From IMG/VR virus record IMGVR_UViG_3300036832_000775, positions 1-64,000 of that record: a stretch of DNA of 64,000 nucleotides; one strand, 5' to 3'. This document shows, in pieces, positions 20,485 to 54,186 of the stretch (within the stretch, counting starts at the first letter, position 1; the number at the start of each line of letters is the position of its first letter). This DNA is from a virus. The notes beneath the pieces were generated by a model. It saw nothing but the letters and a program-made list of their open reading frames with translations, searched no databases and had not been told where the DNA came from. A program made the translations under genes and the position numbers.

Positions 20485-23400
20485 TCACTGCTTAACCGGG
20501 CTGCCGTCATAGTTGAACGCCTTGCCCGTCGTCTTGTTTGTCCAAACTCCAGTCTGATTGTCGTAGGTGTATTTCCCGCTAGGCAGCCCGGGCGGCCGGA
20601 CGCCCGAGCGAGCTTTCCGCAGAGAGACGGCATCGTCGATCTTGTTGTCCTTGACGAACTGATCGTCGTAGTCGCCCAGGCTGAGCGTAGTCGGGCGCTG
20701 GCCCTCCTTGGCGTGTCGCCACTTCATGTAGCCCTGGCCGTATTTGTCTTGGTAATCGAGGACGCCAAGCGCCTGCGCCAGGATGGCGCGGTTCGCCTCC
20801 GGCTCCAGCTCGGCGCTGGGCGAGGCCTGCTTGTAGGACGTGATCTCGGCGACGCGCGGGGTTCCCGGCATGGCCTTGACGGCGTCCATAATCATGGCCG
20901 TCGAGTTCTTGACGTACTCCTGGTAGCTGGAGGCCGTGCTCGGATCCAAGCCGACAGCGCCCGGGTTGAAGCCGGCCGCCTTGATGTAGCGGACGACATC
21001 AGCCTTCCAGTCTGCGCCAGCTCCCGGCTTGTAGCCGCTGTCGAGGAGCCCGATGAGCGCTTCCGCGCGCTGCGCGAGGACCGGCCGGCTGCGGAGCCCC
21101 TGGCGCACGTCGGCATCCTGTTCGGACGTCGCCTTGACGTCGGCCTCTGTCCCCGCCTCCAGGCCTTTCTTGATGCCGGCCGTCCTCGCTTCCCAGGACG
21201 CCTTCGCGGCCGCGATCATCGCGTTGCCTTGATCGATGTAGGAATTGCCGGCCGTGCCGCCGCCAATGTTCATGGCGCCGCCAAGCTTGATCCGCCGCAT
21301 CCCCTCTATGTAATCCGGGTCGGTTGTGTAAGTGCCGATGTCGGCCCCAGACGTGCCGGCCCCGGTCCTATCCCCAGCTCCTCCCGCGACCTTCGTCGGC
21401 GGAGCTCCGCCCCCACCCGTTCCAGATTGCCCCGCGCCGCCCGTAGGAGCCCCGCTGGCGCCCGTTCCCCCTCCCAGGGTAGGAATAGACGGGAGAGGAC
21501 CAACGCCCGTCCCTGAGCCTCCTGTGCTCCCTGTAGAGCCGTCGCCGACGTCGATGCCCGCATCACGGAAGGCCGCGATCTGGATTTTGGCCATGCGCTG
21601 CGCGATCTGGGTCTGGATGACCTTGAAATCGGCGTCCGCGCCATGCTCGCGCGCCTCGGCCGACAGATTGGCGATCTGCGCCTGATTGTAGTTCCAGTCC
21701 TTCTCCAGGCCCTGCATCTGGCCGAGGTACTTGTTCCCGGCCGCGAAGCCCTCGCCCATCTGTGTGCCGAGCCAGGGCGAGCGAGACGCCATCATCCCTG
21801 CGCCGACCGTCATCATGTAGCCGAACGGGTCGCGCTTCAGCTCATCGCCCAAGGTCGGAGGATGGCTCGGCTGCCCGCCGCCAGGAGGAATAGCAAACCC
21901 GCCGCCGTAGCCTTCCGTAGTGGCCACGGCAGGCTGCGCGCCAGCGCTTGGGACATCGGCGCCCCCGCCCGCGACCGAGACCGGCGAGGCCTTGCCAGAG
22001 CTCAGATAGGCCTGGGCGTACTTGTCGCCCTTCCACGGCGCGAGATTGACCCCCTTGCCATGGCTATACATCTGGTCGATCGCGAACTTGCCGACGCCCT
22101 GCCATTGGTTCGGGTCAGTCGGATCGTAGCCCGCCTTGCGCGCCTGATCCCCGAGCGCGCCAGGATGGATGTTCATCTGAAAATCGCCGAACGAGAACGG
22201 CTTGCCTCCCTCGACATCGACGGTCGATCCGCCGACGCCAGGAGCGTACAGCCCCTCGGCCTTCGCGACGCCGAGCGCGATGTTTGGATCGGCGCCGGGA
22301 TAGGTCTTGGTGATGTAATCGCGATACCAGGCGGCTCGCTGCGCAGGAGTCGTCGCTCTCCGATCAGACGGGACGCCGCCGCCTCCGCCTCCGCCGCCGC
22401 CTCCGCCTCCGCCTCCGCCTCCGCCCCCTCCGCTCGGAGCTGGGGCCGGCGCGGGCGCGGGCGCGGCCCCCGCAAACGGGTCTAACGCCTCTTCGATCGC
22501 CGCGTCGCCGCCCTCTTGAAAGTTACCGCGCAGGGAGCCAAGCCCTACGCCACCTCCAGTCGCGAAACCTGTATCAAGGTTGAAAGTGTCGTCAGGGAGA
22601 GCTGCGAAATCTCCCGACAGATCAGCGCCGCTGACGATATCGCTCGCCCCGCCGCCTCCGACGTCCCCGGCGCCTCCATCCGATCCCGTCGGCGTCGTCT
22701 GCGCCCCGCTCCGGTCCTTGAAGCCCGTCAGGACGGCGCCGGCCTGCTTCATCAGATCGCCAGGACTCCCCGGCTGAGCGCCGCTCTGGGGCTCTGGCGC
22801 TTTAGGCGCCTGGGCCTGCGGCGGACCTGGCCCCAGTCTGCCGCTGCTGCCGGACGAGGCCTCGATCGCCGCCAGGAACGGATCGATCGAACCGCCCCCC
22901 TCCGCAAAGCCCATACGGCCGCCGCCGCCGAACAGATCGCCGAACCCGCTCGCGGCCTTCGAGGTCGCGAAGGATCCGAGGCCTTCGCCCTGTGAGGTCT
23001 GGCCGGACATGCCGAAGCCCTGCGGCGTATAGCCGCCAGTGTTCTCGAGAGGCGAGGAGCCCATGACGCCGCCGCCGCCCTGGAAGTTAACCGGCCCACC
23101 AGAAGCCCGAACGGGAGCGCCGAGATAATCCTCACGCGGCGGGACCCAGCTCCCGTAATCGGTGTTCGGCGTCGGCCAGGAGCCATGGTTGCCAACGATG
23201 TCGGCGTAGTTGCTGAGATTGACGCGGCCTGGCCCGCCGGCTGGGTGAGCTCCTCTAGTCCGCGCGATATGCCGCGCCGCAGCAATCGCTGGGTGAACAG
23301 GCGCTTGAGCTCGAGCGTTCGGGCTGACCCCCGCGGCGACCGCGTCGCCAGGAACGTAGGTTGAGCCGCGCGCATTGCCGGTCGTTGGCACGAAGTGGCC

Positions 23401-26400
23401 GGCGGTGATCGGCGGCCCGCCCATGAGGCTCGTGACGTCGCCGCGATAGCCGCCTTGCCCAGACGCGCCGCTCAAGGAGCTTGCCGGAAGCGTCCCCGAC
23501 ATCGGCGCGGCGTCTCGCGACGGGACGTCGCCCCCGCTGTCATTGAAGGTGTCGAAGGTGTCGTCGCTAAGATTGGCGAATATCCTGTCGAGCCATCCGC
23601 CGCTCTGCGGCGGCGGCGCCCAGGTGCCGCCTGGGTCCGTCTGGCCGGGATAGGGCATGTTGCGAGTCTCGGCGGGACTGGACGTATCGCCGCCGTCGGC
23701 GCGGCCGATGCGGCCGCCCGTCCACTCGCTCTGGAAGCCCGCGCCTCCGCCATGGAAGGCCCCTGGCAGATCGAGCTCGTCATGATGCCACATGGGCGTG
23801 CCGAACTGATCGCCCTCCGGCGGCATGATCAGTTTCGGCCCGAAGGCGCCCCCCTCTGTGTGCCCAACCGCGTGTGGCGGGACCATCGGCATCGGGCGCG
23901 GAGGCGGCGGCTCGGGCGGCGGAGCCGGGAGCCTCAACGGAGGCTCATTAACCCTGCCTTCGATCGGCGGCTCGACCTCGGTCGACGGCGGACGGTACTC
24001 GGTCTCGCCGGAGAGCGGTCCGGGTCTGACCGCAGGAACACGGGACTGGGGCGGGGGCTCGGGAGGAGGCCCCCAGTTCATCGAATGCCCGCCATAAGGC
24101 TTCGTCTTCCAGGTCTCATCCAGCGGCTCTGGGGCCGGCTCGGGTGCCGGCGGCCGGACGACAGTAGGCGGGACGATCGGCGGCTGCCGGAGGAGCGGCC
24201 CATGCAGGGGATCGCCGGCTGCGCCAGATCCTGCCGGCCCCGGCGTCGGCCAGCCAGGATAGCGCGCTGTCGAGGGATGGTCCGGCTGCGGCGTGATGTC
24301 ATGAGGCTGACCCGTCACCGGATCATGCGCGATGACGCGAGGCTTCACGATGCCGCGCGAAGCCGCCGCCTGTGCTCGAGCTCGCCCCGCGAGCTGGCGC
24401 TGCACTGCGATGGCTGGCGGCGCCTGCCGCCCTCCAAAGAGGCCAGAGAGGTCGAGCGCAGTGTAGGTCGGAGGCGTGCGCCCCGAACCGGTCCCCGGTT
24501 GAAAGGTAGTGAAGCGGGGGAAACCGCCACGCTGGAAGCCGTCGCGCACGTTCGTCCCTCCGATCCCTCCGCCTGCCGATTTTCCGGGCTGGAACATGTG
24601 CGGCGTCGGTCCGCCATAAACATCGCTGTAAGAGTGCGCATAGCCAGGCATGCCCAGCTCGCCGAGGAACCGCCCCATGTCGTTGCCGGGGCCGACTTCC
24701 GCCCATTCCTGGCTCGTCCCACCGAGCGCCGCCTGCCTCATCGGCGACTGAGGCGCTGGCTGCGATGGCGGGGGCTGCGACAGCGTTTCAGTTCCTGCCG
24801 GAACCTTTCCAGGCGTGTAGCCGAACCCGCTGCCGGAGCCGAACCCGCCGCCGGCACTGCCGCCCGCGCCAGGATCGGCGATGCCGCCGCCTTGGAAGCC
24901 CGCCCGCCCGCCGTTGGCGTGACCCGTCATTGCACCGAGGTAAGCCTGCCTACTCGCAGGCGAGACGCCGGGGGGTGGACGTGGCGGCTGCCACTGCATG
25001 GGACCCCCCCAGCCCCCGCCGCTTGGGTTGTTGTGATTTGCGACCGGGTCGAACGTCGTCGGGACCCATTGGCCTTGCGGCTGGGCTGGCGCAGCGGCGG
25101 CCGGAGCGGCGGCCGGAGCGGCGGCGAGGGGTTTCATTTCGGTTCCTGCCGGGACCTTTCCGGGCGTGTAGCCGAACCCGCCGGCACTGCCGCCCGCGCC
25201 AGAGCCGCCCGAGCCACCACCTCCGCCGCCGAAGTATTGATTGGCGATGTCGCCGAGCTGGCCGCGAGACAGTCCGCCATATGTCGCGCCAGCTCCGCCA
25301 GGGATCCGCGCGCCCCCAATTGCGGGCGGACTCGTGATGCCTCCGGAGGGAGCGACCCCGCCGCTGCCCGAGCCCCCGCCGAAGAGACCCGCGAGAGAGG
25401 CCTCGGCCGAGCCGAATTGCGGCGACGAACCGAGGTCCTGCCAGTTTGGCGATGGCGAATTGGTGACGGGCGGCATCCACTGGCCGCCGCCGATCGCCAG
25501 CGGCGCGGTGAGATCGAACCCCAAGTAGGGGTTCTTAGAACCGCCGCTCCCCAGCTCCCAAACTGAGGCGGCCATACCAGAGGCTGGCCCCACCTCTTCT
25601 CCCGGGCTCCAGCCGCCAACATTCCCTGCCGGGTTCAACGCGCCGCCGCCCTGGAAACCTTGCCGCTCGCCGCCGGCCATACCGGATGGGCGCAACGGGA
25701 CAGTCTCAAAGCCGGGGTTAGGATGAACGTCGGCCCCGCTGGCGAGCGCCATCGAGCCTAAACCCATGCGCGCGCCAGGCACCCCCATCATCATCAGATC
25801 TTGCCCAGGCGAGCCGCCTCCGCCGCCGCCTCCGCCTGCCACACCGCCGAGCGAGCCCAAGCCGCCCATCGCGCCCATCATTTGCGCGCTGCCCATCGGC
25901 GCGCCGCCGGAAGCGAAGTGGCCGCGGTCGGCTGCCTCGTCGGTCGCGCCCTCGTAGTCGACGCCGAGGAGATCGCCAACGCCGATTCGCTTCACATTGC
26001 CAGGATCGCGGTAGGCCTCTTCCTGCGCCATGAGGCCGATCTGGGTGCGCGGGTCGCCGCGGAAGTTGTAGCGGTAGATTTGCTTGCCGTCGTAGGTCTC
26101 ACCGATCGGCTCGACGTTCTCTTTCGCGCGGATATCAGAGAGACCGAACAGGCTGCCGAGCATCCCCAGTCCCTGAAGCCCGGCACCGATCCCTTGGCCG
26201 ATCGTGTTCGGCGCCGGAGAAGTGGTCTGGCCCGAGGTTGTGCCGCCGGACAGGCTTCCTGTCCCCTCGACGATGTTCCCCAACCACCCCGTTGTCGTGA
26301 ACGGATACGCCTGCCCTTGCTGATACATTTGCTGGGCGGCTTGATCGATCGCCTGCTGTTCTTGTTGCGGGATCATCCCCGCCTGGATGTTCGCCTGCGC

Positions 26401-27054: not shown

Positions 27055-27058
27055 GGCT

Positions 27059-27625
27059 CTACTCCGCTGCCACGCTATTCGCTGGCGTCATCTCCGCAAG
27101 GCGCTGGGCGAAAGGAATCCGGTTAGGTGGCGCGTAACAGAAGAACGCGCCGAACTGCGGGAGCCAGCGGCGATAGAGCCTGATCTTCGCCGCGGTCCGA
27201 ATGTTCGAGAACACGCCGACGGTGAGATCGAGGCCGATCTGATCGGAGCATTGCTTCGCGTAAGCGATGAGGTCTGCGGCGAAGCCCATGCGCCGGTAGT
27301 CCGGCTTCACGTAATTGAAAAACTCGAGGAGCTGCCAGTCGTCCGAGTACCAGATCGGCTCGATCAGCAAGAAGATCGCGCCCTTGAGATCGTGACGATC
27401 GCCGATCACGCCGAGGATGCCGCGGCGTTCCGGCCCCTGGCGAATAGCGAGCCGGATCATCGCGGCGACCTTGCCGAGATTGAGCGGATGATAAGGTTGT
27501 TCGGCGTGCATCATCTTGCACATCTCGAGGATGCCGAACTCGTCATGCTCATCGGCCATGCGGATATTCAGGCGCGGCGGCGCGCTCCGCAGCTCAGCCT
27601 CGTGTACGCGAGAAAACTCTTTCAC
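27059..27625 (-). CDS. GNAT-fold virion-associated protein
   Basis: IRMADEHD..FNYVKPDYRRMGFAADLI..KIRLY. Confidence 0.75.
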   Translation of the reverse strand: MKEFSRVHEAELRSAPPRLNIRMADEHDEFGILEMCKMMHAEQPYHPLNLGKVAAMIRLAIRQGPERRGILGVIGDRHDLKGAIFLLIEPIWYSDDWQLLEFFNYVKPDYRRMGFAADLIAYAKQCSDQIGLDLTVGVFSNIRTAAKIRLYRRWLPQFGAFFCYAPPNRIPFAQRLAEMTPANSVAAE

Positions 27626-27930
27626 GAGTCGAGCTCCTTCTCGAACTCCGGCCAGAGGTAGAGCTCCTTGCGGCCGAAGGCATCCTTCGCGAAGCGGCTG
27701 ATCTCATCGGGCGGATCGAACGCCGTCGGCGTGCCCTCGACCTTGAGCTGCGCGAGCCCGAGGTAGCGCATCGACGGTCCAGGCTGCACGAGCCCTGCAG
27801 GGTCGGGCGGATCGGCATATGGAATCCCGGTCGGATGCAGCATGACCGGCAGCTCGGCCGCGATCTGCGGCGCGAGCGCGGCGGCCGGCGCTGCGATGCC
27901 AAGCAGCTTGAGGAATCCTCGTCTGTTCAT
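27622..27930 (-). CDS. Small twin-arginine protein carrying a capsid-like segment
   Basis: MNRRGFLKLLGIAAPAAALA; SMRYLGLAQLKVEGTPTAFD; ATGA-coupled on both sides. Confidence 0.65.
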   Translation of the reverse strand: MNRRGFLKLLGIAAPAAALAPQIAAELPVMLHPTGIPYADPPDPAGLVQPGPSMRYLGLAQLKVEGTPTAFDPPDEISRFAKDAFGRKELYLWPEFEKELDS

Positions 27931-28664
27931 TTGGCTGGCCCCGGCAATCGTTTGATCGTGTCGGCGGCCTCTTTCTTCAACGTCAGGACCCATCTGTCGA
28001 GGATGAGGTGCCCCTTATCGACATTGCCATCCCCCATTTTTGCGACCTCACTCGGCGAGATTACAAACTCGCCGCCACTCGCATTGATCGGAACCGCGCC
28101 ATTCCTCGTCGGCAGATTGGTCGCTGCGCCGCCATGCTTCTGCTTGTCAGTCAGCGCCGGGTTCTCCTCCGACATGCCCTGCGGATAGAAATTCGGCGGC
28201 GTGAAGTGCATCGGCGGCGGCTTGCCCCTGGGTATCTTGATGCCCTTGCCGACCTTGAGCGCCGGAGATGGCGCGCCCCATGGCGCCTTTGGCGCGCCCC
28301 ACGGGCTGCCAAACATCATCTTCAATTGGCTCATGCCGCTGACGGTGTTCCCTTCGCCCAAGTGCGAGACCGCCCAAGCCGGGACGACGTAACTTCCATC
28401 GGGGACATGCATGGGAACGTCGTCGGCGCGGCCGGCGCCTGCCGACATGATGCCGCCAGTGAACGGCGACTCGGGACTATCCTCGATGCCGCCGCCTGTC
28501 TCGCCGCCTTCCGCGCGCCCAGGCCGCATCAGCATGCGGTCGCTGACCCCAGCTCCGAATTTCGGCGTCGCCATTGGTTTCGGGAGCGTCGGCATGCGAG
28601 GCGGCTTACTCGCACCGAGCATGCGCTGGATGCGGATAGCCGACGGGTTGTAGCCGTTCGCCAT
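27927..28664 (-). CDS. Virion protein with a duplicated D-x-VP...G(S/E)(Y/F)V...LG-x-GN domain
   Basis: RADDVPMHVPDGSYVVPAWAVSHLGEGN and VPINASGGEFVISPSEVAKMGDGN. Confidence 0.75.
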   Translation of the reverse strand: MANGYNPSAIRIQRMLGASKPPRMPTLPKPMATPKFGAGVSDRMLMRPGRAEGGETGGGIEDSPESPFTGGIMSAGAGRADDVPMHVPDGSYVVPAWAVSHLGEGNTVSGMSQLKMMFGSPWGAPKAPWGAPSPALKVGKGIKIPRGKPPPMHFTPPNFYPQGMSEENPALTDKQKHGGAATNLPTRNGAVPINASGGEFVISPSEVAKMGDGNVDKGHLILDRWVLTLKKEAADTIKRLPGPAK

Positions 28665-28962: not shown

Positions 28963-31200
28963 TCAGTTGCGACCGTCAGGAGCGAACCGGAACTTGAAAC
29001 CGCCCAACCGTGCAAAAGACCCAAGGTCATTGCCTTGGATCTCCGCGAAGAAATAGCGCCCTCTGCACCGGACCTCAACTGCCCCGGTGGCATTGGTGAC
29101 AATAAAAGGCCCGTAGGGGATCCAGGTTTCTCGCGGGTCGTCTGGATACTCGGCCGTGTAGAGGATGATTTGGACCTGGGCGCTGACGCTCTGCGGTTGT
29201 TGCCAGCGCCGCCAGCGCATGTCGGGAATCATGTAGTCGATGAAGACTTTGTCCTCGCCCTCGCTCAGCATGAAGAAGCCCGTCTGAACCATCCAATTGA
29301 TCGGCTGGCCGTTGGCGTCCGCCCCCATCTCATGCTGGTGGATCATCGAGTTGACCCCGCCGGAGACAACCATCGACGAGACGGGATGGCCGAAGATGTT
29401 GTTGTCGAGCCAGGCCGTGACATGGATTGGAGTCTCGCCGACCATGCCTTCCTGCGGGGTCGAGAGCGAATAGTCCCACTCCCCGGTAACCGGGTTGAAC
29501 TTCACCCAGCTGTCGTTCTCGCCATCCACCGAAGCCATCGAGGGGAAGTGAAAGGCGACCTCGTCAAAGCCAGAGTTAGCCGCGCCTCGGATATGGTGGA
29601 AGTAGAAGTAGTCCCCGTCGCTGTCCCTGGCGTTGTTTAGATTCTTGATGATCACGTCCCAGACGTCGCACTGGAGCCGCTGCACGGTGCCGTTAGAGTA
29701 CATCCAGAAGGCATCGCGCGACATCCAGAAGACTTGCGGGCCGTAGATGGCCCAGGCGTGCTTGCCGATAAGTCCACAGCCCTGCGCCACCTCGTTGAAG
29801 CCAAATACATTGGGATATCCGATGTAGGCCATCACCCACAAACCAACATCTGTCCAAAGCATAGCCTGCTGGGGTCCTTGGCAGCCACCTATGATTTTAC
29901 TTCCGCGCGTCAGTCGATATGTTCCAGCTTGATTGGAAACCGCCGCGGTCCAGGTGTTATAGTTGGCGTTATCGCACCAGGCGACGAGCATGGGGTCCTG
30001 CACCTGGCCCGTGCTTGCTCCGTAGGCGATGATTTGCTGTTCGGGCATGCCGATGAAGAAGCCCGAGGCATAGCTCGGCCCGTTGCCGATCCGCTCCGAG
30101 TTCTGAATCCCGCTCGTCGGGTCCCAGGCGAACAGCGGCCCGTTGATCGCGCTCGAGATCAGCTGCGAGCCCCAGTTAGCGAGCGTCCAGTCGTCGCCGG
30201 AGATCGCGCCGAACCCAACCGTCCCCTCCGGCGGCGGGTATGGCGTCCCCGATAGCGGCGACGGTTGCTGGCCTACGCCCCAGCCGCCGGTGCCCCAGCC
30301 GCCGACGCCCCAACCTGAGTTCGGCAGGAGCGGCGCTTGCGTGACCCAATAGATGAGCTGCGGCGCGCCACTGAGGTTCGCTTCATTCGTTGTGGCCGAC
30401 GTCGGGCACGATTCCTGCGCGAAGATGATGAAGTGGTTCGCGTCGATGACCTCTTGGACTGGATAGAAGCCCTGCAGCGTCACCGTCCCTGCAGGATTAG
30501 TGTTATCGCCGATGTACGTCGGCATCGGGATTGAGAAGTACGCGCCCGCAACCAGCCCATGGCTCGGCAGATAGACGTTGACGACCTCGGTGTTCGCGTT
30601 CGAGGTGAATGTGGCGACGCACGGCGTCGTCGCGGTGGCGGCGCTGACCGCGGAGAATGGCAGCGTGATCGTGTACTGCAGATTGGTCAGCATCGTTGTG
30701 ATCGGGTAGGTGCCGAAGATCACGATGCCGCCGACGGCGACATGGCACTCGATCTGGACCGAGCCGTAATTGTTTATCTGGGCATTGGGGTCGTTGATCG
30801 TGACGATCGGCGAGCCCGCCGTTGTCGTAAAGGTCTGACCGTTGGTCGAGACCGCATACTGCGGCGTGATGGTTTGATTGGCCGGCCGGCCGCCTTGGGT
30901 CGGCGTTAGGACGTTCAGGCCAGCTGAGCCCGCAATCGCGAGATGGTAACTGAGATTGAGGTCCATCCAGGCGCATAGGTCGCGCGTGATGCCATTGACC
31001 GTTTGAGTGGCTGAGCCGGTAGGCGGACCGCTGGCGACGTTCCAGAGCCCCGTCGCGAAAAAATTGATCCAGCCGCCATACTTCTCCGGCAGGCCGCCCT
31101 TCCAGCGAATCATGTTCGAGGCGACGATGTTCGCCTGAAGCAGCGTCGGAGTCTGAAGCGCCTTAACTCCTGGCTGGATCTTGACGGTCTCGAAGGGCAT
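28963..31200 (-). CDS. Tail nozzle / DNA stabilization protein (P22 gp10-like position)
   Basis: KIQPGV..IRWKGGLPEKYGGW; NQAGTYRL; CGLIG; RGR; C-terminal PDGRN; beta-propeller-like. Confidence 0.75.
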   Translation of the reverse strand: MPFETVKIQPGVKALQTPTLLQANIVASNMIRWKGGLPEKYGGWINFFATGLWNVASGPPTGSATQTVNGITRDLCAWMDLNLSYHLAIAGSAGLNVLTPTQGGRPANQTITPQYAVSTNGQTFTTTAGSPIVTINDPNAQINNYGSVQIECHVAVGGIVIFGTYPITTMLTNLQYTITLPFSAVSAATATTPCVATFTSNANTEVVNVYLPSHGLVAGAYFSIPMPTYIGDNTNPAGTVTLQGFYPVQEVIDANHFIIFAQESCPTSATTNEANLSGAPQLIYWVTQAPLLPNSGWGVGGWGTGGWGVGQQPSPLSGTPYPPPEGTVGFGAISGDDWTLANWGSQLISSAINGPLFAWDPTSGIQNSERIGNGPSYASGFFIGMPEQQIIAYGASTGQVQDPMLVAWCDNANYNTWTAAVSNQAGTYRLTRGSKIIGGCQGPQQAMLWTDVGLWVMAYIGYPNVFGFNEVAQGCGLIGKHAWAIYGPQVFWMSRDAFWMYSNGTVQRLQCDVWDVIIKNLNNARDSDGDYFYFHHIRGAANSGFDEVAFHFPSMASVDGENDSWVKFNPVTGEWDYSLSTPQEGMVGETPIHVTAWLDNNIFGHPVSSMVVSGGVNSMIHQHEMGADANGQPINWMVQTGFFMLSEGEDKVFIDYMIPDMRWRRWQQPQSVSAQVQIILYTAEYPDDPRETWIPYGPFIVTNATGAVEVRCRGRYFFAEIQGNDLGSFARLGGFKFRFAPDGRN

Positions 31201-39755: not shown

Positions 39756-40139
39756 TTATGGGACCTTTTCGCTTTCGGCCATGATCTTTCGCTGTTTCGG
39801 GCCGGAGCCCGCATCGTGGGTCTTGGGATGAAGGTCCGCGCCGACGCCGCCGCCGCTCGCTCGAGCTGCCCGCCCCATCGAGGGTTTCCTGCCTCCGCCG
39901 CTGATCGTCGAACCGCCATAGGCCCGCTTGAGCGAAGCCCCATCAGGAGCTGCGCCGCCGGTCGCCAGCTTCGCGATCTTGCCGCCCTTCGCGCGGAAGA
40001 TTCCCGAGCCGCGCGAGAGCGTGGCGTCCGGCTCGTTCTTGGGATGAGCGCCGCGCGCCTCGCGCTCGACGTTCTTGGCGGATTGCTTTTTGAGAGCGCC
40101 TCCTGACGCCCTGCCTTCGCGACTTGTTTCGCCTCGCAT
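39756..40139 (-). CDS. Small basic protein with five xAxGG motifs
   Basis: RASGG, RAKGG, LATGG, RAYGG, RASGG; AAGGAGG RBS. Confidence 0.7.
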   Translation of the reverse strand: MRGETSREGRASGGALKKQSAKNVEREARGAHPKNEPDATLSRGSGIFRAKGGKIAKLATGGAAPDGASLKRAYGGSTISGGGRKPSMGRAARASGGGVGADLHPKTHDAGSGPKQRKIMAESEKVP

Positions 40140-41389: not shown

Positions 41390-42304
41390 CTACTGGGTCG
41401 GGAACGAGCCCCAGATAGATCTGAAGTCGAAGTACCCGAACGAATACCGCTCGTAACCCTTAACAAGCAAGTTGTCTGTCGTGAAATCTACCTGCATGTC
41501 GAGCTCGAATGCTACGCGCTGCAAGTATAGGAGCCCTTCTTGATCTGTCATCACGAACCAGGCCGTAGGTGATGTCAGGTAGTCATGCACCAGATGACCA
41601 TCAGGAATGCCACCTGACGTCTCAGGTATTGCGTTAATATCATTATCATTCGTGCCTGGCCTGAGCACTGTACGCAGAAGCCTGATCGCAATAGGCTCGA
41701 GAGCGATCGGAACGACTAGCTTGCGAGCTCGCGCCTGCATTCTCAGGCCGGCATTGTCGCGGAAGAGACCGCGGACCGAGGCCTGCGCATTGAGGAGCGA
41801 GGCCTCATTCAGATCCATATCGACGGGGAATCGATTGGGGACGACCCCAGTATCGATCGGATGGTTCAGAGAACATAGCGGTTGCTGATCCCCCAGGATG
41901 GTGGGATCGTAGACGGTCGCCATGTTTAGTGGGTACGCGCCATAGATCTCTTTAGTCTGATTGAAAGACTTCTGTAGTCCAAGGTTACTTGGTTGCCACT
42001 GTCTTTTATATAAATTATCGTCGATCATCTTTCGTGTGAAAGCATAACCGAGCCCGATCTCCTTGTGGTACTGATTATAGACGTAACGCTCGCCAGCTTG
42101 ATTGTCGAACGTAGTCGGGCCGCCCTCATTCTTCAGGGCGGCAAGGCCGAGGTACCGCATCGATGCTGTGCGCTCGACCGACATGAAGGATTTGTCGACC
42201 TTGTAGATCTTGGGATAGATCCGGTCGATGTCCTTGTACTGTCCCGCAACCTTACGGAGGCCGGGGAAGAGAAGGTCGTAAGCCTGGGCGACTGAGACGG
42301 CCAT
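41390..42304 (-). CDS. Major capsid protein
   Basis: L.PGL..K.EG..F..ITR..IDDNLY..GD.QPL..HP..DLNEASL..YLTSPTAWF..KGYERYSFG..R..WGS. Confidence 0.85.
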   Translation of the reverse strand: MAVSVAQAYDLLFPGLRKVAGQYKDIDRIYPKIYKVDKSFMSVERTASMRYLGLAALKNEGGPTTFDNQAGERYVYNQYHKEIGLGYAFTRKMIDDNLYKRQWQPSNLGLQKSFNQTKEIYGAYPLNMATVYDPTILGDQQPLCSLNHPIDTGVVPNRFPVDMDLNEASLLNAQASVRGLFRDNAGLRMQARARKLVVPIALEPIAIRLLRTVLRPGTNDNDINAIPETSGGIPDGHLVHDYLTSPTAWFVMTDQEGLLYLQRVAFELDMQVDFTTDNLLVKGYERYSFGYFDFRSIWGSFPTQ

Positions 42305-44673: not shown

Positions 44674-45080
44674 CAGAACACCGCGTCCGGGTGGCCTAGC
44701 TTGCCCTTGATGTAGACGTCCGGAATCAGCCTGCACTCACGGTCACCGATCATGCACTTGAGACCGTCAGAAGCCCGGTAGACCACCCAGTCCCCAGGCG
44801 TGACGTCTTGTCCGTAAAACTTGACCGGGCCGTCATCGACGAAGGCCCGCAGCCCCTTCTTGAGGACCATGCCGACCTTGCCCTGGTAGCGGTCCTCATC
44901 GACCGCTTCGTCGGCGATCTGCAGACCGCTCGCCGTATGCGTCGCCGGCCGGATGTAGATCGCGACGAGCACTTGCTGGTTCATCGGCTCGACGATCTCG
45001 AGATCGGCGCCGACGGCGTTCCAGATGACGTCGCGAGGGTCCTCGACGTGTATGGTTCGGAGTCTATGATGCGCGGGCAA
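44673..45080 (-). CDS. GroES-like co-chaperonin
   Basis: EPMNQQVLV..TASGLQI..GMVLKKG..VTPGDWVVY..G. Confidence 0.8.
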   Translation of the reverse strand: MPAHHRLRTIHVEDPRDVIWNAVGADLEIVEPMNQQVLVAIYIRPATHTASGLQIADEAVDEDRYQGKVGMVLKKGLRAFVDDGPVKFYGQDVTPGDWVVYRASDGLKCMIGDRECRLIPDVYIKGKLGHPDAVF

Positions 45081-45538: not shown

Positions 45539-45769
45539 TCATTTCGTCAGGCCTTTGACGGCCCACATAACCGCCTCTTCGACGCGCGTCACAGCAAGAG
45601 AGGCCTCACGGCTCGCGGGCACATTGGCCTCGATGGCTCGAATAAGCCCGAGGCCCATGTCCTTGAGGTGCGTCATCCCGGCCTTCTCCGCGTCGGTCAG
45701 AACGCGGTACTGGTGGCGCATCGTATTGTTGACGGTGCGATCGTCGCTTGCGCTGTCGACATGCGTCAT
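45539..45769 (-). CDS. Acb2/Tad1-like helical-hairpin protein (putative cyclic-nucleotide sponge)
   Basis: YRVLTDAEKAGMTHLKDMG..SREASLAVTRVEEAVMWAVKGL. Confidence 0.65.
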   Translation of the reverse strand: MTHVDSASDDRTVNNTMRHQYRVLTDAEKAGMTHLKDMGLGLIRAIEANVPASREASLAVTRVEEAVMWAVKGLTK

Positions 45770-46899
45770 TCGGCCAGCTCAATCTTCCCGCTATTGTTGC
45801 GCTTGGCGTTCGCCATCCGGCCCTGGCCGGAGCCTGCACCAAACTTCTGACTGATGCGGCCGCCGCTCGCGCGACCTGGCATGCCTGGGGGCATCATGTG
45901 TGGGGGGAGTCCTGGCGGCATGCCGCCAGGCGGAGCGCCAGCTGGCCCCATCGGCGCGCCTGGCGGCGGCCCCATCGGAGGAGGACCTCCAGGTCCTGCG
46001 CCAGGAGGCCCAACGGGTGGCATCGGCGGCCGCGGCGGCGGCATCGGCGGCGGGACCGGCCCAGGAGCGGCCATAGGCGGCGGAGCCGGCGGTTGCTGTC
46101 CCTGCCCGTGCCCGACGATCACATTGACGACGGTCTTGCCCTTGCCCTTGCCCTTCGTCCGGCCGCCGCGCGCGCGGGGGACCCGGCCGCCGGCAGCCTG
46201 GCGCGGCGGCTCGGCGGCCTCATCAGAGCCAATGCCGCCCTGGCCTTTCGGCGCTCCGACAGATCTCCCGCCGAGACCGCCGGTAATGAAGTCGTAGTAT
46301 TCATGCTGACCAGGAATCGAAGTGTCTAACCACTCGGGCTTCTGTTCCGCGTAGACATCTTTCTGGCCGAGCACGTCTCTTTCTGGGCCGCCTCTCCAGC
46401 GCCCGATTCGGCCGCCTTTGGCGCGAATCAGCGGCCGATCGCCGTAGCTTTTCGGGCCGCCATCGGTGACCTTGGAAATATCGCGCGTCTTGCCACCATT
46501 GGCGCGCGCGACTCGACCGCCCTTGGCGCGGGTGGGAGGATAATTCTCGCCAGTGAACCGATCCTTGCCGGATGCGTCCTCGTTCGCCATGGTCCGGCCA
46601 GCTTGGGTGAACTCGTCTTTGGCAGTCGCCTGTCCGCCGAGCGAGCGCCCGATTCGGCCGCCGGCAGCTCGTGCGGCGCGCCCAAGCGACGGCGCCCTCG
46701 CGGCTCCGCCGGTAGCGAAGGCCGAGCAATCGCTCGTCTTGGCGGCTGCCCGCCCATAATCGTCAGCGGACGCGCCCTTGTCGCCGTTGCCGCCGTTGTT
46801 TTTGCCTGACGCCGCAAACTTTTGCAGTTTGTCGGTCGTAAAGGCCTTTTGAGAGTTCGCGCCCATGGCGGGGACCTTTCTGGGGTCCCAGCCTTTCAC
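45766..46899 (-). CDS. Basic, disordered protein with about ten xAxGG motifs and a Pro/Met-rich tail
   Basis: FATGG, RAAGG, RAKGG x2, RANGG, QAAGG, RARGG, RASGG; KGKTVVNVIV. Confidence 0.75.
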   Translation of the reverse strand: MKGWDPRKVPAMGANSQKAFTTDKLQKFAASGKNNGGNGDKGASADDYGRAAAKTSDCSAFATGGAARAPSLGRAARAAGGRIGRSLGGQATAKDEFTQAGRTMANEDASGKDRFTGENYPPTRAKGGRVARANGGKTRDISKVTDGGPKSYGDRPLIRAKGGRIGRWRGGPERDVLGQKDVYAEQKPEWLDTSIPGQHEYYDFITGGLGGRSVGAPKGQGGIGSDEAAEPPRQAAGGRVPRARGGRTKGKGKGKTVVNVIVGHGQGQQPPAPPPMAAPGPVPPPMPPPRPPMPPVGPPGAGPGGPPPMGPPPGAPMGPAGAPPGGMPPGLPPHMMPPGMPGRASGGRISQKFGAGSGQGRMANAKRNNSGKIELAE

Positions 46900-46920
46900 G
46901 CCGCGAGTTTATGGCGCCGT

Positions 46921-46970
46921 TTGCATTTCGTGGGAAGAGATCTATATTTGCAGTTCGTGCAAATAGGAGT
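46921..46970 (+). promoter_or_regulatory. Promoter overlapped by operator, plus RBS
   Basis: TTGCAT-16 nt-TATATT; TTGCAGTTCGTGCAA (46948-46962); AGGAG. Confidence 0.7.
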
Positions 46971-46972
46971 CG

Positions 46973-47191
46973 ATGATGGCACAACTTCCCCCGCCGGATC
47001 ATCCGGCCTGGCAGCAATGGGCGCGGACGAGCCCGGTCCTCGCCGGCATGCTTCAACGCGGCGACCCGCTCACGCGCGGCACCTGGCTGCGGCGCAGTTA
47101 TGTGTTCGATGAAGTTCCTGACCCCGTGCCCCCCGAGGTCGAACAGCAGATGCCGCCGCCCTTCCGGCAGCTAAATGAGGATCAGGGCTGA
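46973..47191 (+). CDS. Small counter-oriented protein, possible immunity partner
   Basis: own promoter and RBS; converges on the C-terminal domain of the 1343-aa gene. Confidence 0.65.
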   Translation: MMAQLPPPDHPAWQQWARTSPVLAGMLQRGDPLTRGTWLRRSYVFDEVPDPVPPEVEQQMPPPFRQLNEDQG

Positions 47192-50100: not shown

Positions 50101-51213
50101 AGCTGCGTGCAAGGCGGGAGCGACGAACTTACCGACGTCAGGGACCGCGCCAACGCCGGACAGGGCGGCCTGGCCATAGTCGCCTTCGCTCCCATAGTGG
50201 TAGGCGTCAGCGCCGGACAGGACCTGGCCGCTGATGGGCGCGTAGTTCGCGACCGTCGAGGCGAGGGTCCCAAGGCCCCGCGGGCCGCCCATGCTTTCCG
50301 CGCCGGTTTCCAGCCCATGCTGAAGGCGTTCGGACGGAGGGAGGTCGGCGGGGCCGATCGTCCCGATGCCGCCCTGCGCCAGGATGTCCTTCGAGGTCAT
50401 CGGCGGCGGCGCGTCGGGGACCTGGGCTCCAGCGTCTGGATCGACCTCGCCCAGGTCGGTGACGCCGCCGTCCTGATAGTCGATGCGGCCGCCGGCAGCT
50501 CGCGTCGCGAAGGCGTCAGGGTCATGCCAGCCTGGCCCCTGTTCCCGGCCGACGAAGGTCGTATTGCCGATCTTCTCGCGGTTCAGCGCGGCGAGCGGTC
50601 CCGCCCAGCTCGGCGGCCGCGGCATGACCCCGTAATAATGGGTGGCGCCATAGGTCGGATCTGGGGTCGCGCCGCTGTAGACCTTGTCGACGAGGCGGCC
50701 GATGCGCGCGTAGTCACCAGGCCGATCGCGCTGCAGCGTATTGATCGTCGGCTGGCCTTCTGTCGCGCGGCCGGTGTTCCATGGAGAGAACTCATGGTAG
50801 CCGAGGCGCGGATTGACCCCTTCAGCCGGGGCCTTGACGACGCCCTCGATGCCTTGGCCGTAGCCGCCAGATCTGACCCGGTTAAGGATGGCGTGCGTGA
50901 CGCCGGCCTTGCCGAGCTCGGGCTCGCCTCGAGCCTCACCGTAGACGGTCTTGACCAGGAGATCGCGGTCGCTTGGGCTCAGCGGCGGCGGATTCCAGCC
51001 CAGCGGGGGCGCTACGGGATAGCGCGCGTCTCCGCCAATGCCGGAAGGCGGTTGAGGCTGCCTGGAGGCGAGCCGGAGCTCATCTGGAGGAGCTGAAAAC
51101 GGATCGTGGTCGACTGGCGCGACGTCATAGTCGTTCGGCGACGACGCCATCGAGCCGAAAGGGTTCCCCTCGACCGGATCAACGTCATAGTCGCCGAGGT
51201 CGCTACCCGCCAT
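47182..51213 (-). CDS. Polyvalent virion protein: SleB-like cell-wall hydrolase, LPD23-like HExxH domain, DUF7178-like (HhH-glycosylase-like) domain
   Basis: TVYGEARGE..ILNR..EFSPWN..GATHYY; HPELYENYPEL..LAHEGQHAVQDIEG..GEVQA; WY..AAMSPQKDW..KVRSFFNNI..DTHA..AY..A..MQSITW. Confidence 0.8.
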   Translation of the reverse strand: MAGSDLGDYDVDPVEGNPFGSMASSPNDYDVAPVDHDPFSAPPDELRLASRQPQPPSGIGGDARYPVAPPLGWNPPPLSPSDRDLLVKTVYGEARGEPELGKAGVTHAILNRVRSGGYGQGIEGVVKAPAEGVNPRLGYHEFSPWNTGRATEGQPTINTLQRDRPGDYARIGRLVDKVYSGATPDPTYGATHYYGVMPRPPSWAGPLAALNREKIGNTTFVGREQGPGWHDPDAFATRAAGGRIDYQDGGVTDLGEVDPDAGAQVPDAPPPMTSKDILAQGGIGTIGPADLPPSERLQHGLETGAESMGGPRGLGTLASTVANYAPISGQVLSGADAYHYGSEGDYGQAALSGVGAVPDVGKFVAPALHAAAPTIAHSVAPIGAMFLGTGARNVDRDALAAAKAGLQAGDHPYDVWNRHVWGQDPEGNWHTEIADPTHPPDYSKWGRPGDVYKLSEVYEHPELYENYPELADMPVRFLGKEHMGDVLGGYNRDAKAFVLNADMPPGEAYPTLAHEGQHAVQDIEGWPPGTNPNVQGVHQQGSPGQKALLWLLNQKEYKSKPRAELIETAKGMAYGTSAGEVQAANTGEGRFGLPMDVRRDFHPAEMERAPRSMQWWGSPGRWRWGQDILPRAAGGSVSESEALRRRLELLMQPRHGFQAGGAPDDQSQDAFTANAQARAQQEAQAEQFRQAHPEQYPQPEAAPTEPTTWYGRWGKTLGDEVSAGVSGLDYAAGKAGEFGSKAIAGTIADPFPAFGWRTMSPETEANLAKGIYGAGSELASDPMLGGDLTMGMHGVPEAAAPRLGGAGSDVSAAAATPRAQVLDINGVKRHIDPEFPESRVGTSVPWNDDPNAPIEAEQAAHANNDAHVGMDLVKQAGPRYGKAVADMVRSGKIPFIKVAPGATDAEIHEALIGHMTDNISGLYQRISDAVKNGSRLWYEGAHGRSRDIALTHDIPHENAAGVVAAMSPQKDWDQNVTLADWVAHTAGTTAPDATMTGDMTDWVNRYALRKDPERVEVDQATGKETRYNAKTGEVMSPNSVSQQDVLRQLDEVAGKPWSQMTPEQKAFYTRAYYEAHGPPDHLMPISDADYKWQGAGGRQIEIAKGEPLHWIDDKGDRKYGYYINNPDGTHDGVNAAYSDEYKNVAGQPIPVSWGSTNEAANAIRAFHAQSMGDISEALGGGHKVRSFFNNIIAPWSRKGDVTSDTHAVAAALLRPLGAGAPEAASGMGAASPTHNETGAQGFYPFVAEAYRRAAEKAGILPREMQSITWEALRGRWTPGEKSAKTNLKKNFTSQTDITNGIWRAYQNNQMTMDQAHDAILGPNGERIRDPRWFGTFRPAGGQP

Positions 51214-51379
51214 CAGCCATCTCGAAACCGGCCCGCTCGTAGAGGAAATCGTCGAGCGGCGTGTACTCGTCGTCGTCCCAATAGTGGGACAGGTCGATCC
51301 ATTCCTTGACCCATTCCCAGAGCTTCGCTGCGCCGTAATTCGCTTCTAGGGCCGCGAGCATCCCAGATTCGTCGCTCAT
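51203..51379 (-). CDS. 58-aa acidic Trp/Tyr-rich protein (absent from ORF track)
   Basis: ATGA overlap with portal stop; MSDESGMLAALEANYGAAKLWEWVKEWIDLSHYWDDDEYTPLDDFLYERAGFEMADGG. Confidence 0.55.
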   Translation of the reverse strand: MSDESGMLAALEANYGAAKLWEWVKEWIDLSHYWDDDEYTPLDDFLYERAGFEMADGG

Positions 51380-54186
51380 TTTCGTCGGATTCTGAAGTAC
51401 TGGCCCGTGCGAGGATGCTGGACGTAGAACTCGCCGTCCGGCGCGCGCCGCGCGAGCCCGTAAGGCGTGTCGATATGATGCTGGACCGAGCCGCCGGCCG
51501 CGCGTTGCGTTCTCGAGCTCGAGCTCGCCGGTCTCGGCTTCGCTTTCACCTCCTGCAGGCGCGCGCGATGCTCTTCCTGGCCCATCTGGGCCTCGTGCCG
51601 CTCTTCGCGCTGCGTGACCTGGTCCTCGTGAGCCTGTTCTTGCTGACCCATCGAGCGCTCGTGCGCCTGGGTGCGGTCCGTCATCATCGATTCATGCTGT
51701 CGGCCGCGCTCTTCGCGCTGCGATTCCATCTGCTGTTCGCGCGCGCCCATCACTTGCTCATGCTGACGGTCCTGCGCGCCCATGACCATGTCGGTCTGCG
51801 CCTTCTGCGCGCCCATCACGCGATCGTGCATCTGTTCTTGCTGGCCCATCTGGGCCTCATGCTGGCGATCGACCGCGTGCAGCTGCTGTTCGTGCGCCCA
51901 ACCGCCTCTCTCGAGGTTCATTTCGTGCGCCTGGTCGCGCAATTGCGTCGCGGTGTCATGCGCGCGATCGAACTGGTTCTGCTGACCCTCGAATTGCTGC
52001 TTCTGCCGTTCCATGAGCGGCTTCCGCGCCTCGTTGGAGGCCTGCGCATGCGCCGTTTGGGTCGCGAGCTGCTGTTTCTGCAGCCCCATCTTCGACGTCG
52101 CGATCTTCACTTGCGCGTCGACCATATGTTGCTGGTTGTCCATCGGCACGTTTTGCTTGTCGAGCTCCAGCTGACCGGCCTTTGTCTGCGCGTCGAGCAT
52201 CGAAGCCTGCCCGGTGAGCATTGCAGCTTGCGCTTTCGGATCCGGCGGCGGCCCTTGCGGCACTGGGTTCAAGTACTGATCCGGGTTCGCGAACCCGATT
52301 CCGCGAATGCATGTGCGGCGAATCACCAAGACGTTGAAAGCGCCAGGCTCATCCTTCGCCATTTGATAAAGAGCCGCATTCCTCAACATGCGCTGCAGAT
52401 GCGAGGCCGTGTTTGGGTCGGCCTTGGTGACGATCGAGTTCTCGTTGATCGCCTGCAGGAATAATTGCTCGTCCCACGAGAGGTTCGCCGGCATCTGAGG
52501 GCCGGAGCTCGCCTTCTTCTTCTGACGCCGGACCGTGCGCAGGAAGGATTCGGGATCCTCGCGGAAGCGATCGACCAGGAGCTGCAGCTCATCGCTCTGC
52601 GCCGCGCACAAGCGCTTGTGGGTCGCGAGGAGCGGTTTGATGGCTTGTTCGATTAACGCCAAGGTCGTGCCAACCGGGGCGTCCTGTCGCCCCTCGCCAA
52701 CCATCACCTCGGCAGTCCCTCCGAGGCTCTTGCCCTGTTCATTGAGCTGCTGAACGAAGCCCACCCAGACCGCGTCGGGGCTGCGGTAGGGCATGCCCAT
52801 TGCGACTTGCTGGATCGGTAGTCCGCCAGTCTCGACTTCAGCCGAGCCGCCTGGCGGAATGCGGAATATGTTGTTATTCTGTCTAGCGGCCCCCTTGGCA
52901 ACTAGAAGCCCTGGGAAATTGGCGAACATGCCAGCATCGACGATCTCTCGCCAAGCAGCGGTTATGCCATTAGTAATATTGCCAAGTAGATGAGACAGCC
53001 CAATAGCATAAAATCCGAACCCACGGATAAAGGGAAACTGGACAAAATAGGTCTTGGGCAGACACATTTCGTCGTCTTCATTGTAGTTTCTTCTGAGCTC
53101 GACGATTGTTCTTGTCTCTCTGTGTATGACGGCCTTGTAGGGGACCGCCAGGCCGTCAGGTGATCCGTCGGTCTCATGCTCGAAGCCATCGAGGTCCAGC
53201 TCGCAGTAGGTCTCCAGAAATTCGTGTTCGCGATCGTCTTGCTCCCAGCTGTCGTATTTACGCACGCCGGAGATTTGCTCGCTCTGCAGCTCGGTCGCTG
53301 ACTTCTCGATGTAGCCTGGCGTGGATAGGTCGACGTCGCGCCAGGCGCCGCAGATCTGCATGCGCTTGACCATCGAAGGGCGCATAAACACGCGGTGCGT
53401 GATCCGGCCCGCATCGTAGATCGAGGTTGCGCTATTGTTGACGATCAGGTCATCGCCAAACACCGCGCGAGAGATTGGCCGGCGGAGGATCGGATCGTGG
53501 CACACCTTCTTGAAGACGCATCCATCGAGCCCCACGCGCAACAACATCTGATCTGTGTCGGGAATCCAGGGCTTGTCGACGACGGTCAGATAGTGATTGA
53601 GATCGTGCTCCAGAGCGTCGGCGAGGTCGTCGAGTGCTGGAGTCGCGCCCGCCGTGTCCTCGGAGACTTTCGCGGGTCCGTCGGTTGGGCAAAGTTCAGC
53701 GAAGGCATTGGCCCCGAATCGTATCACTGCCTCCGCCAGTAGCGTGGCGCGGATCTGCGATTGACCTTCGAGCGGAGCTGAGCCCTCGGAGCCGCTCGAT
53801 CGCATCGATTCGATGCGCAGGCCCATGAGCTCCATGCCGCGAGCTCGCGTGTCGAGCCATTCACGGCGTGATTCGTTGTCTTGATCGATTAGGCGGATGA
53901 GCTCGTCGGCGAGTCCGTTGAGCTGCGTGTCGGGGAGCACCTCGGCGAGGTTATCGTCGAACTCGGTGTCTTCCTTCGCGATGCGCGGCGGCCCGATATA
54001 GACGATGACGCCGCCGTCATCGGTCTCGATCTTAGTGGCTTTGTCGTAATCGATGCCGCCGTCATCGTCTGAGAGGTCGACGTCCCTCGGCGTGAAGAGA
54101 CTCGACATGTCGTCGTCGTCATCAAAGCTGCCGTCAATAGGGCTCGGCGGCAGCCTGATCGCCCCAAGACCACCGAGCCCAGCCAT
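51376..54186 (-). CDS. Portal protein (P22-like) with long C-terminal extension
   Basis: FDDNLAE..D.ESRREW..LAEAVIRF..GCVFKKV..GFGFYAIGL..DAG..N..APVGTTLAL. Confidence 0.88.
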   Translation of the reverse strand: MAGLGGLGAIRLPPSPIDGSFDDDDDMSSLFTPRDVDLSDDDGGIDYDKATKIETDDGGVIVYIGPPRIAKEDTEFDDNLAEVLPDTQLNGLADELIRLIDQDNESRREWLDTRARGMELMGLRIESMRSSGSEGSAPLEGQSQIRATLLAEAVIRFGANAFAELCPTDGPAKVSEDTAGATPALDDLADALEHDLNHYLTVVDKPWIPDTDQMLLRVGLDGCVFKKVCHDPILRRPISRAVFGDDLIVNNSATSIYDAGRITHRVFMRPSMVKRMQICGAWRDVDLSTPGYIEKSATELQSEQISGVRKYDSWEQDDREHEFLETYCELDLDGFEHETDGSPDGLAVPYKAVIHRETRTIVELRRNYNEDDEMCLPKTYFVQFPFIRGFGFYAIGLSHLLGNITNGITAAWREIVDAGMFANFPGLLVAKGAARQNNNIFRIPPGGSAEVETGGLPIQQVAMGMPYRSPDAVWVGFVQQLNEQGKSLGGTAEVMVGEGRQDAPVGTTLALIEQAIKPLLATHKRLCAAQSDELQLLVDRFREDPESFLRTVRRQKKKASSGPQMPANLSWDEQLFLQAINENSIVTKADPNTASHLQRMLRNAALYQMAKDEPGAFNVLVIRRTCIRGIGFANPDQYLNPVPQGPPPDPKAQAAMLTGQASMLDAQTKAGQLELDKQNVPMDNQQHMVDAQVKIATSKMGLQKQQLATQTAHAQASNEARKPLMERQKQQFEGQQNQFDRAHDTATQLRDQAHEMNLERGGWAHEQQLHAVDRQHEAQMGQQEQMHDRVMGAQKAQTDMVMGAQDRQHEQVMGAREQQMESQREERGRQHESMMTDRTQAHERSMGQQEQAHEDQVTQREERHEAQMGQEEHRARLQEVKAKPRPASSSSRTQRAAGGSVQHHIDTPYGLARRAPDGEFYVQHPRTGQYFRIRRK

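Follow-up and report, generated by a model that had tools for sequence, protein, structure and literature searches.

The window analyzed here comprises 64,000 nucleotides and covers the initial 64 kb of one 72,948-bp contig (IMG/VR record IMGVR_UViG_3300036832_000775) of a temperate tailed phage of 62–68% GC that encodes an integrase, RecT and YqaJ. In its minus-strand virion module a short di-glycine motif, [R/F/Y]-[A/Q]-x-G-G, occurs about 30 times in six internal proteins, and the role of this motif is the subject of the present analysis. The module begins with the portal, the polyvalent protein p1343 and the basic protein p377, which are followed by an Acb2/Tad1-like protein, a Cpn10-like protein and the likely scaffold p374. 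It continues with the major capsid protein p304, p407, p127 and the SU10-type adaptor proteins p254 and p267, and it ends, in this order, with two fibers bearing C-terminal S74 domains, a P22-gp10-like nozzle, p245, p123, a GNAT-like protein, the 2189-aa ejection protein p2189 and p707. The relatives of the phage are uncultured IMG/VR phages with portals of 59–85% identity, a Roseiarcus metagenome genome (capsid 97% identical) and a prophage of Acidisoma cellulosilyticum (capsid 62% identical); MW202675, phage DSL-LC04 and the HTVC023P-type pelagiphages are farther kin.

In its fuller form the motif reads G-[R/F/Y (K,H,L,M)]-[A/Q]-x-G-G-[R/K/x]-[I/V]. Its carriers are the portal tail, p1343, p377, p127, p245 and p2189, and every motif string listed in an earlier reading of the letters alone (hereafter, the sequence-only reading) was present in the proteins to which it had been assigned. 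The six carriers are probably packaged in the virion and injected, and they would be expected in the head.

The motif is far more frequent than the composition of the proteins predicts. Across 26 open reading frames (ORFs) of the virion module, [RFYMLH][AQ].GG was observed 33 times, whereas 2,000 whole-protein shuffles gave a mean of 7.06 and a maximum of 18, so that none (0/2000) reached 33; in the same set RA.GG occurred 16 times (1.10 expected) and FQ.GG 6 times (0.28 expected). Within the six carriers, 31 matches were observed versus 4.31 when residues were shuffled within 25-residue blocks, and versus 5.40 (40-residue blocks) or 5.38 (whole protein) when all glycines were kept fixed. The narrower form [RFY][AQ].GG was found 27 times in the carriers, with 2.3–2.9 expected depending on the scheme (2.8 with fixed glycines), and under every scheme 0/2000 shuffles matched the observed count. 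The enrichment thus holds over a Gly-matched background, the check that the sequence-only reading had suggested. Only 3 matches occur in the genome's remaining 55 ORFs (8,720 residues, 59 GG pairs). Since the copies differ in their codons, they do not form a DNA repeat, and it is the protein on which selection acts; this codon variation, together with the presence of the tandem motif in phages of 48–58% GC, rules out both a repeat at the DNA level and a GC artifact.

The sequence-only reading had also described the capsid, nozzle and adaptor proteins as motif-free. This is correct for the major capsid protein p304 and the nozzle p745, but the adaptor-like p267 contains FAVGG. This match is kept in 0/9 orthologs and the LAIGG of p407 in 0/6, and for this lack of conservation both are treated as chance. 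At orthologous sites R, F and Y interchange, and in some p245 homologs F-Q, F-A, H-A, K-A, L-A and M-A stand in for R-A; the R-A and F-Q forms are therefore considered to be one motif. The motif is always positioned in linkers, and the regions around it are predicted by AlphaFold 2 (AF2) to be disordered in p245 and p377, and would therefore be accessible. The motif is thus real, enriched, conserved and located in disordered regions. The coordinates of its carriers and of other features of the window are given in Table 1.

Table 1. Carriers of the di-glycine motif and other features of the window (coordinates in the window).
Feature	Coordinates	Strand	Details
Portal, 936 aa	51376..54186	-	phrog_1216, E 6.8e-15; RAAGG at residue 895, 51490-51504
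p1343, polyvalent internal protein, 1343 aa	47182..51213	-	Pfam domains and linker motifs: RAAGG238-RID-YQDGG246, 50464-50502; RAAGG631, 49309-49323; FQAGG657, 49231-49245; HEGQH at residue 514, 49660-49674
p377	45766..46899	-	most likely 366 aa, as the gene call and homologs start at M12, 46866
p127, small basic protein	39756..40139	-	5 motif units
p245, just downstream of the nozzle gene	27927..28664	-	RAEGG at residue 50, 28503-28517
p2189, giant ejection protein	20485..27054	-	phrog_4287, E 2e-25; Peptidase_S74, 23.6 bits (cut-off 22); S306 (SDIRAK), 26137-26139; first motif HF-ASGG, residue 380, 25903-25917
p745, nozzle / tail hub (P22 gp10-like "stabilization protein")	28963..31200	-	phrog_3287, E 7.9e-42; tblastn to "phage stabilization protein" genes; 0 motif matches
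p304, major capsid protein	41390..42304	-	matched by tblastn to genes annotated as major capsid protein (MW202675, 62% identity); 0 motif matches
Acb2/Tad1-like protein, 76 aa	45539-45769	-	PF24729, E 1.8e-15
Cpn10/GroES-like protein	44673-45080	-	PF00166, E 9e-7; phrog_3188
p123	27622-27993	-	PF10518, 17.1 bits (below the cut-off of 22.7)
GNAT-like acetyltransferase	27059-27625	-	Pfam match sub-threshold
PEP-CTERM protein	14791-15588	-	PF07589, 27.4 bits
PEP-CTERM protein	15598-16323	-	PF07589, 26.4 bits

The protein p377 contains eight units (FATGG61, RAAGG77, RAKGG124-RVA-RANGG132, RAKGG159, QAAGG234-RVP-RARGG242 and RASGG343). It is very basic (isoelectric point, pI, 10.5), with a Pro-rich stretch and a conserved C-terminal helix, and its AF2 model built with the family alignment is almost wholly disordered except for two terminal helices (mean predicted local distance difference test score, pLDDT, 53). 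A search revealed 134 homologs at E<=0.001, all unnamed, and the 81 that were analyzed contain 471 motif matches, or 5.8 per protein. Position 1 in these is occupied by R (372), F (43), L (16) or K (15) and position 2 by A (429) or Q (42), while the residue following the motif is frequently R (302) or K (72) and the next one I (145) or V (110). Successive units are spaced 8 residues apart in 112 cases and 16 in 33. When 51 homologs with a mean column identity of 20% were aligned, the invariant columns fell on the motif units and the spacers drifted. The second basic protein, p127 (pI 10.8), has the units RASGG10, RAKGG49-KIAK-LATGG58, RAYGG72 and RASGG93, which are kept in the homologs of five relatives; the homolog in the Roseiarcus metagenome genome is 66% identical. 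The segment PS[ML]GRAARAxGG is common to p127 and p377. No match to p377 or p407 was found by tblastn among cultured phages.

Such a pattern could be produced by a linker signature without a specific reader, that is, a favored turn or hinge in Gly-rich disordered spacers that was spread by duplication. The Gly/Pro-rich low-complexity setting, the gain and loss of units between relatives and the absence of structure at the motifs in the AF2 models are all consistent with this. However, shuffles with fixed glycines yield 5 matches where 31 were observed, the spacers of the p377 family drift around invariant motif columns, and single copies are kept across deep divergence, namely in the portal tail (27/27) and in the tape-measure protein pb2 of T5-like phages (6/6), which is discussed below. 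Together these make an unread linker signature quite improbable.

The single-copy carriers show the same placement in linkers. In the portal, RAAGG lies in a Ser-rich linker, which is preceded by the long C-terminal region rich in Q and E and followed by a conserved basic tail of about 37 aa; the motif is found at the same place in 27/27 relatives. In p245 the motif lies in a disordered stretch (AF2 pLDDT < 50 at residues 46–58) followed by two beta-hairpin-plus-helix modules (residues 83–118 and 190–239), and 85/90 homologs have at least one match, mostly in the form G-R-A-x-G-G-x-I-x-D-S-P near residue 50. With the 5.8 units per p377 homolog, these data agree with the expectation that motif positions are kept in homologs. 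PDB sequence searches with p245 and p377 returned nothing useful, and a search of the ESM Atlas returned unnamed viral clusters only (scores <=0.87).

In p245 a further possibility had to be weighed, namely mimicry of the GroES mobile loop, by which the motif would bind host GroEL. Residues 40–84 matched a Cpn20 co-chaperonin (E 0.039), GroES mobile loops read ..GG-I-V-L, and the phage encodes a Cpn10-like protein of its own. Nevertheless, a profile of 49 p245 homologs finds no Cpn10, the AF2 model of p245 is not GroES-like, and Foldseek against the PDB gave no match at E<=0.001. As the single-sequence match was reproduced by neither the profile, the model nor Foldseek, GroES-loop mimicry was rejected and is very improbable indeed.

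The polyvalent protein p1343 comprises a SleB-type cell-wall hydrolase (96–220), LPD23 (385–435), a zincin-like HEGQH and DUF7178 (1159–1275). In the Pfam scan Hydrolase_2 and DUF7178 scored above their cut-offs, while LPD23 (24.5 bits) and DUF6782 (22.2 bits) remained below the cut-off of 27. Its motifs, which include LAQGG278 in addition to those listed in Table 1, are situated between domains, where they flank the hydrolase of the SleB type, the region of LPD23 and HExxH, and the DUF7178 part at the C-terminus. Linker motifs were found in all 13 polyvalent homologs examined and HExxH in 2 of them.

The giant p2189 is an acidic protein (pI 5.3), in which an N-terminal "DNA ejection protein" module precedes a Peptidase_S74 chaperone domain; this domain is internal rather than C-terminal, with about 1,800 residues after it. 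The first of its 12 motif matches lies about 35 residues past the end of the S74 Pfam match, and the others are dotted over a Gly/Pro-rich disordered middle of about 1,200 residues. By eye, the C-terminal part looks like a transglycosylase. The motif is kept in 17/36 site-by-ortholog comparisons at an overall identity of 37–52%, and sites 380, 840, 1324 and 1383 are kept in 3/3 orthologs.

The key to a possible function comes from phage T5. That tape-measure proteins are cleaved was recognized in the 1970s, and the process is now considered widespread (PMC11972413). The T5 tape-measure protein pb2 is reported to be cut "after R1127," as determined by LC-ESI-TOF mass spectrometry (PMC10038345). 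Our translation of the gene from T5 places the R of ...NSFVP-R|AEGG-MMYPG at residue 1127. This is the only tape-measure cut that we found mapped to the residue. Given that pb2 contains two motif matches and five GG pairs in 1219 residues, the chance of the cut bond overlapping the motif is below about 1%. A cut at R1127 leaves a 92-residue C-terminal fragment, in agreement with a second study (PMC12617516). Among T5-like tape-measure proteins [PG]-R-A-x-G-G is kept in 6/6, at a local identity down to about 37%, and the aligned site in five further T5-like phages reads PRANGG, PRAAGG, GRASGG, PRAEGG and PRAEGG. When the p245 family was compared with the pb2 C-terminus by hhalign, only 6 motif columns aligned and no homology beyond the motif was detected.

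The lambda tape-measure protein gpH contains 3 of the 4 motif matches in the lambda proteome (55 proteins), and FATGG733 and YATGG778 lie in its structurally unresolved Gly-rich C-terminal region. From this region gpH loses about 14 kDa, and both the site and the enzyme are described as unknown (PMC12617516). The computed masses of fragments 738–853 (12.2 kDa) and 713–853 (14.4 kDa) show that the predicted sizes fit only roughly. An hhalign comparison of the p245 family with gpH 690–853 gave a weak match (21 columns, between the second module and approximately gpH 752–772; E 0.0021, probability 13%). The gpH homologs among the 120 matches listed were 99–100% identical and are hence uninformative on conservation.

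Based on these results, we propose that the motif is an endoproteolytic processing (maturation) site of the T5 pb2 type, which would be cut between motif positions 1 and 2; we assign this interpretation a probability of about 0.5. By analogy with T5, the bond cut would be R/F/Y | A/Q-x-G-G, with the GG on the primed side. That the window's own copies are cut, the bond concerned and any enzyme involved are inferences. Cutting at the motifs would separate the folded modules of multidomain proteins. In p2189, self-cleavage at S306 via the S74 domain would be complemented by a second cut at F380|A381, which might free the chaperone domain from the following 1,800 residues, as in ordinary S74 proteins. 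In p245 a 50-residue leader would be removed, and p377 and p127 might be chopped into short basic peptides, such as the DNA-condensing peptides suggested by the sequence-only reading; the high pI of both proteins and the predicted disorder of p377 are compatible with this without demonstrating it. The enzyme could be a host protease or an unrecognized phage activity; a 1973 T5 paper cited in PMC10038345 refers in its title to a selective involvement of the host.

The sequence-only reading had viewed the motif as a cleavage or head-loading tag, with reference to ubiquitin-like proteases, which cut after GG, and to head maturation by T4 gp21 or phiKZ gp175. According to our analysis, a processing site is indirectly supported by T5, where R1127 lies in an RAEGG kept in 6/6, although not a cut after GG: the T5 cut falls between motif positions 1 and 2 (R|AEGG), so that the ubiquitin-like analogy fails, and no such protease was found in our scans. 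Head maturation of the gp21 or gp175 type is not the model either, since the T5 and lambda carriers are tail proteins, and the scans revealed no protease of that type. The statement that no canonical prohead protease is visible holds. Prohead, clan-CE (ubiquitin-like or adenain-like), C39 and JAB proteases were found in 0/50 proteins scanned against Pfam and 0/20 against PHROGs, with about 40 small ORFs lying outside the scan. The only peptidase-type matches were Peptidase_S74 (p2189, p1084 and p451) and the sub-threshold DUF6782.

Several observations weigh against cleavage. The scan of 50 proteins against Pfam yielded no candidate protease common to the relatives, and the p1343 zincin was rejected as a general protease, because HExxH is absent in 11/13 relatives that keep the motif. 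Both R and F/Y at the P1 position would require an unusual dual specificity. The second pb2 match, RALGG138, is not reported as cut, and T5 has a single used site in a siphophage tail-lumen protein, whereas here about 30 copies, often in tandem, are distributed over six podophage head-internal proteins. The strict 8-residue tandem spacing with conserved R/K at +1 and I/V at +2 looks more like a binding or structural repeat than like something a protease would require. Finally, P22 gp7, gp20 and gp16 have 0 motif matches, the last 734 residues of HK97 gp16 have none, and SPP1 gp18 has none near the C-terminus, its only match being at the distant residue 223. Therefore the motif is not a general rule, and the P22, HK97 and SPP1 proteins exclude a universal one for ejection and tape-measure proteins. 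As a separate observation, the P22 record (9369-10058) notes that the 20-residue leader of gp7 is removed by the host OpdA; the cut, E20|KGGKGG, is directly followed by Gly-Gly pairs, and the motif is different.

Because of these points, the alternative of a motif that is not cut but serves in docking or DNA binding has to be taken seriously, even if we consider it rather unlikely. The motif would then bind either a common partner within the particle, for example the scaffold, the portal or the inner wall of the capsid (as a "head-loading tag"), or the packaged DNA; the multivalent p377 and p127 would act as a basic DNA- or wall-binding glue, and the T5 cutting would be a side use of an exposed loop. 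The sharp 8-residue periodicity with up to 8–12 units per protein, the conserved +1 and +2 residues, the high pI of p377 (10.5) and p127 (10.8) and the lack of a protease in the scans are all in line with docking, as is the expected location of all six carriers inside the head. One tag common to the portal and injected proteins also recalls P22, in which portal and ejection proteins both depend on scaffold, and the unusual conservation of the capsid protein (93–97%, versus 76–85% for the portal) is what would be expected of a many-partner hub. However, the analysis identified no partner, and plain DNA binding is difficult to reconcile with the F/Y-type units of the acidic p2189. Moreover, T5 and lambda carry this motif in tail tape-measure proteins, where it cannot be a head-loading tag, and in T5 it coincides with the site of the cut.

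A targeting tag that is subsequently removed or cut would combine the points for cleavage and for docking, and the internal proteins of T4 offer a precedent, as their capsid-targeting sequences are removed by gp21. Nevertheless, the T4 tags are single, N-terminal and dependent on a prohead protease, whereas the present motifs occur internally and in multiple copies, and the scans revealed no prohead protease; this combined scheme appears improbable.

A pattern scan of IMG/VR for RAxGG-R[IV]x-RAxGG returned 34 stretches, of which 33 were examined. Ten of them are in p377-like proteins, two in p2189-like proteins and three at p707-like C-termini, two of these from phages of only 48–52% GC; several others are in further multidomain proteins of the polyvalent type, just before domain starts. 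About five stretches (L063, L062, L064, L053 and L076) were set aside, as they look like wrong frames or DNA repeats. Domain-border motifs in polyvalent and ejection proteins also occur in unrelated IMG/VR phages of 48–70% GC. In DSL-LC04 and MW202675, the genes named "tape measure" and "internal virion protein D" contain [FYM]-A-x-G-G-[IV], in one case as a pair with the 8-residue spacing, and the Acidisoma prophage has the motif in p245-like and p2189-like proteins, with no p377 or p1343 in the stretch examined. Among the papers listed by word searches of the literature for the motif strings, none described such a motif in phage proteins, and novelty in print is claimed to this extent only.

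Two details of the scan deserve separate mention. In L048, L050, L059 and L075 the p707-like C-terminus carries the tandem RAxGG-R[IV]x-RAxGG, behind which lies a conserved, helix-like tail (..LL..PD..I..AL..A...I) some 45 residues long. The p707 of the window has neither the tandem nor the tail. In L063 (10519-11132, 73% GC), about 40 octapeptide-coding repeats (RADGGRVV and variants) lie in a stop-free frame; this run is probably a 24-bp DNA tandem repeat and may encode no protein.

More tentatively, [R/F/Y]|[A/Q]-x-G-G may be an unrecognized, widely shared processing signal of proteins leaving the virion with the DNA or before it, read by one enzyme in the tape-measure proteins of T5 and lambda and in podophage ejection and polyvalent proteins. 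In the present clade it would have been expanded to a polyprotein-like system with six proteins, about 30 sites and basic peptides produced from p377 and p127. If this is true, the enzyme would be either a conserved protease of the host or an activity of the particle that is switched on by assembly, lambda gpH would be cut at F733|A734 (or Y778|A779), and the system would represent a bacterial-virus parallel to adenovirus core maturation. The motif supplies a concrete mutable target, a predicted lambda cut site and a handle on the protease, and with it simple experiments can address the long-standing problem of the site and mode of cutting in tape-measure and ejection proteins. Should the motif be the cut site, it would help in predicting the mature products of giant polyvalent and ejection proteins from sequence alone.

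Several neighboring genes merit a brief description. The identity of p304 is 93–97% across relatives whose portals are 76–85% identical, and p377 and p1343 are far more diverged there. Between p377 and the Cpn10-like gene, inside the head block, a protein with an Acb2/Tad1 hairpin domain is encoded; this family comprises sponges for CBASS and Thoeris signaling nucleotides. The Cpn10/GroES-like protein shows 46–84% identity in 14 relatives; by analogy with T4 gp31, it may assist capsid folding as a co-chaperonin of the phage. A GNAT-like gene is located between p245/p123 and the giant ejection protein, and since its placement is the same in MW202675 and the Acidisoma prophage, it seems to be a conserved component of this module. 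The N-terminus of p123, RRGFLKLLGIAAPAAALA, is twin-arginine-signal-like. Two adjacent proteins have C-terminal PEP-CTERM sorting motifs, which suggests a host with an exosortase system.

Compared with known systems, the process proposed here is itself of a known kind, with a probable expansion to about 30 copies in six internal proteins. Prohead-protease systems (T4 gp21, phiKZ gp175, SPN3US gp245) likewise employ one short site across many head-internal proteins; however, their sites end in Glu and their enzyme is a recognizable phage protease, none of which was found here in the scans described above. A short GG site shared by several internal or core proteins also recalls the adenovirus (M/I/L)XGG-X sites, the LXGG sites of ubiquitin-like and coronavirus papain-like proteases and the double-glycine leaders of bacteriocins. 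The basic core proteins of adenovirus are cut into DNA-binding peptides. In all of these systems cysteine proteases cut after the GG, whereas the T5 cut is four residues upstream of the GG end.

Iyer et al. (2017; PMC5512222) described polyvalent proteins with zincin-like metallopeptidase domains and proposed a proteolytic release of domains. The build of p1343, with a cell-wall hydrolase, LPD23, HExxH and further domains, is similar; however, that paper names no site (the words "linker" and "glycine" occur 0 times in its text), and the motif persists in 11/13 relatives without HExxH. A precedent for a cut at a domain junction is provided by the Tal tail-fiber protein of TP901-1 and Tuc2009, which is reported to be cut at a Gly-rich motif, yielding two virion forms (PMC11409707). 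There, a Gly-rich site likewise lies at the junction before the catalytic domain of an injected or tail lysin protein, but the site (NGGGNSGGGD) lacks the R/F-A/Q positions and the host is Gram-positive.

The lambda conversion of gpH to gpH* shares with the present system the presence of FATGG and YATGG in the region that loses about 14 kDa; a cut of gpH at the motif is putative. The closest likeness is to T5 pb2, where the sequence at the cut, P-R|A-E-G-G, is identical to the motif. The site there is a linker just in front of a functional module at the C-terminus, in a protein that is expelled before the DNA. A corresponding arrangement was found in the window, with AF2 pLDDT < 50 at the p245 motif and over nearly all of p377, and with motifs at the Pfam domain borders of p1343 and p2189.

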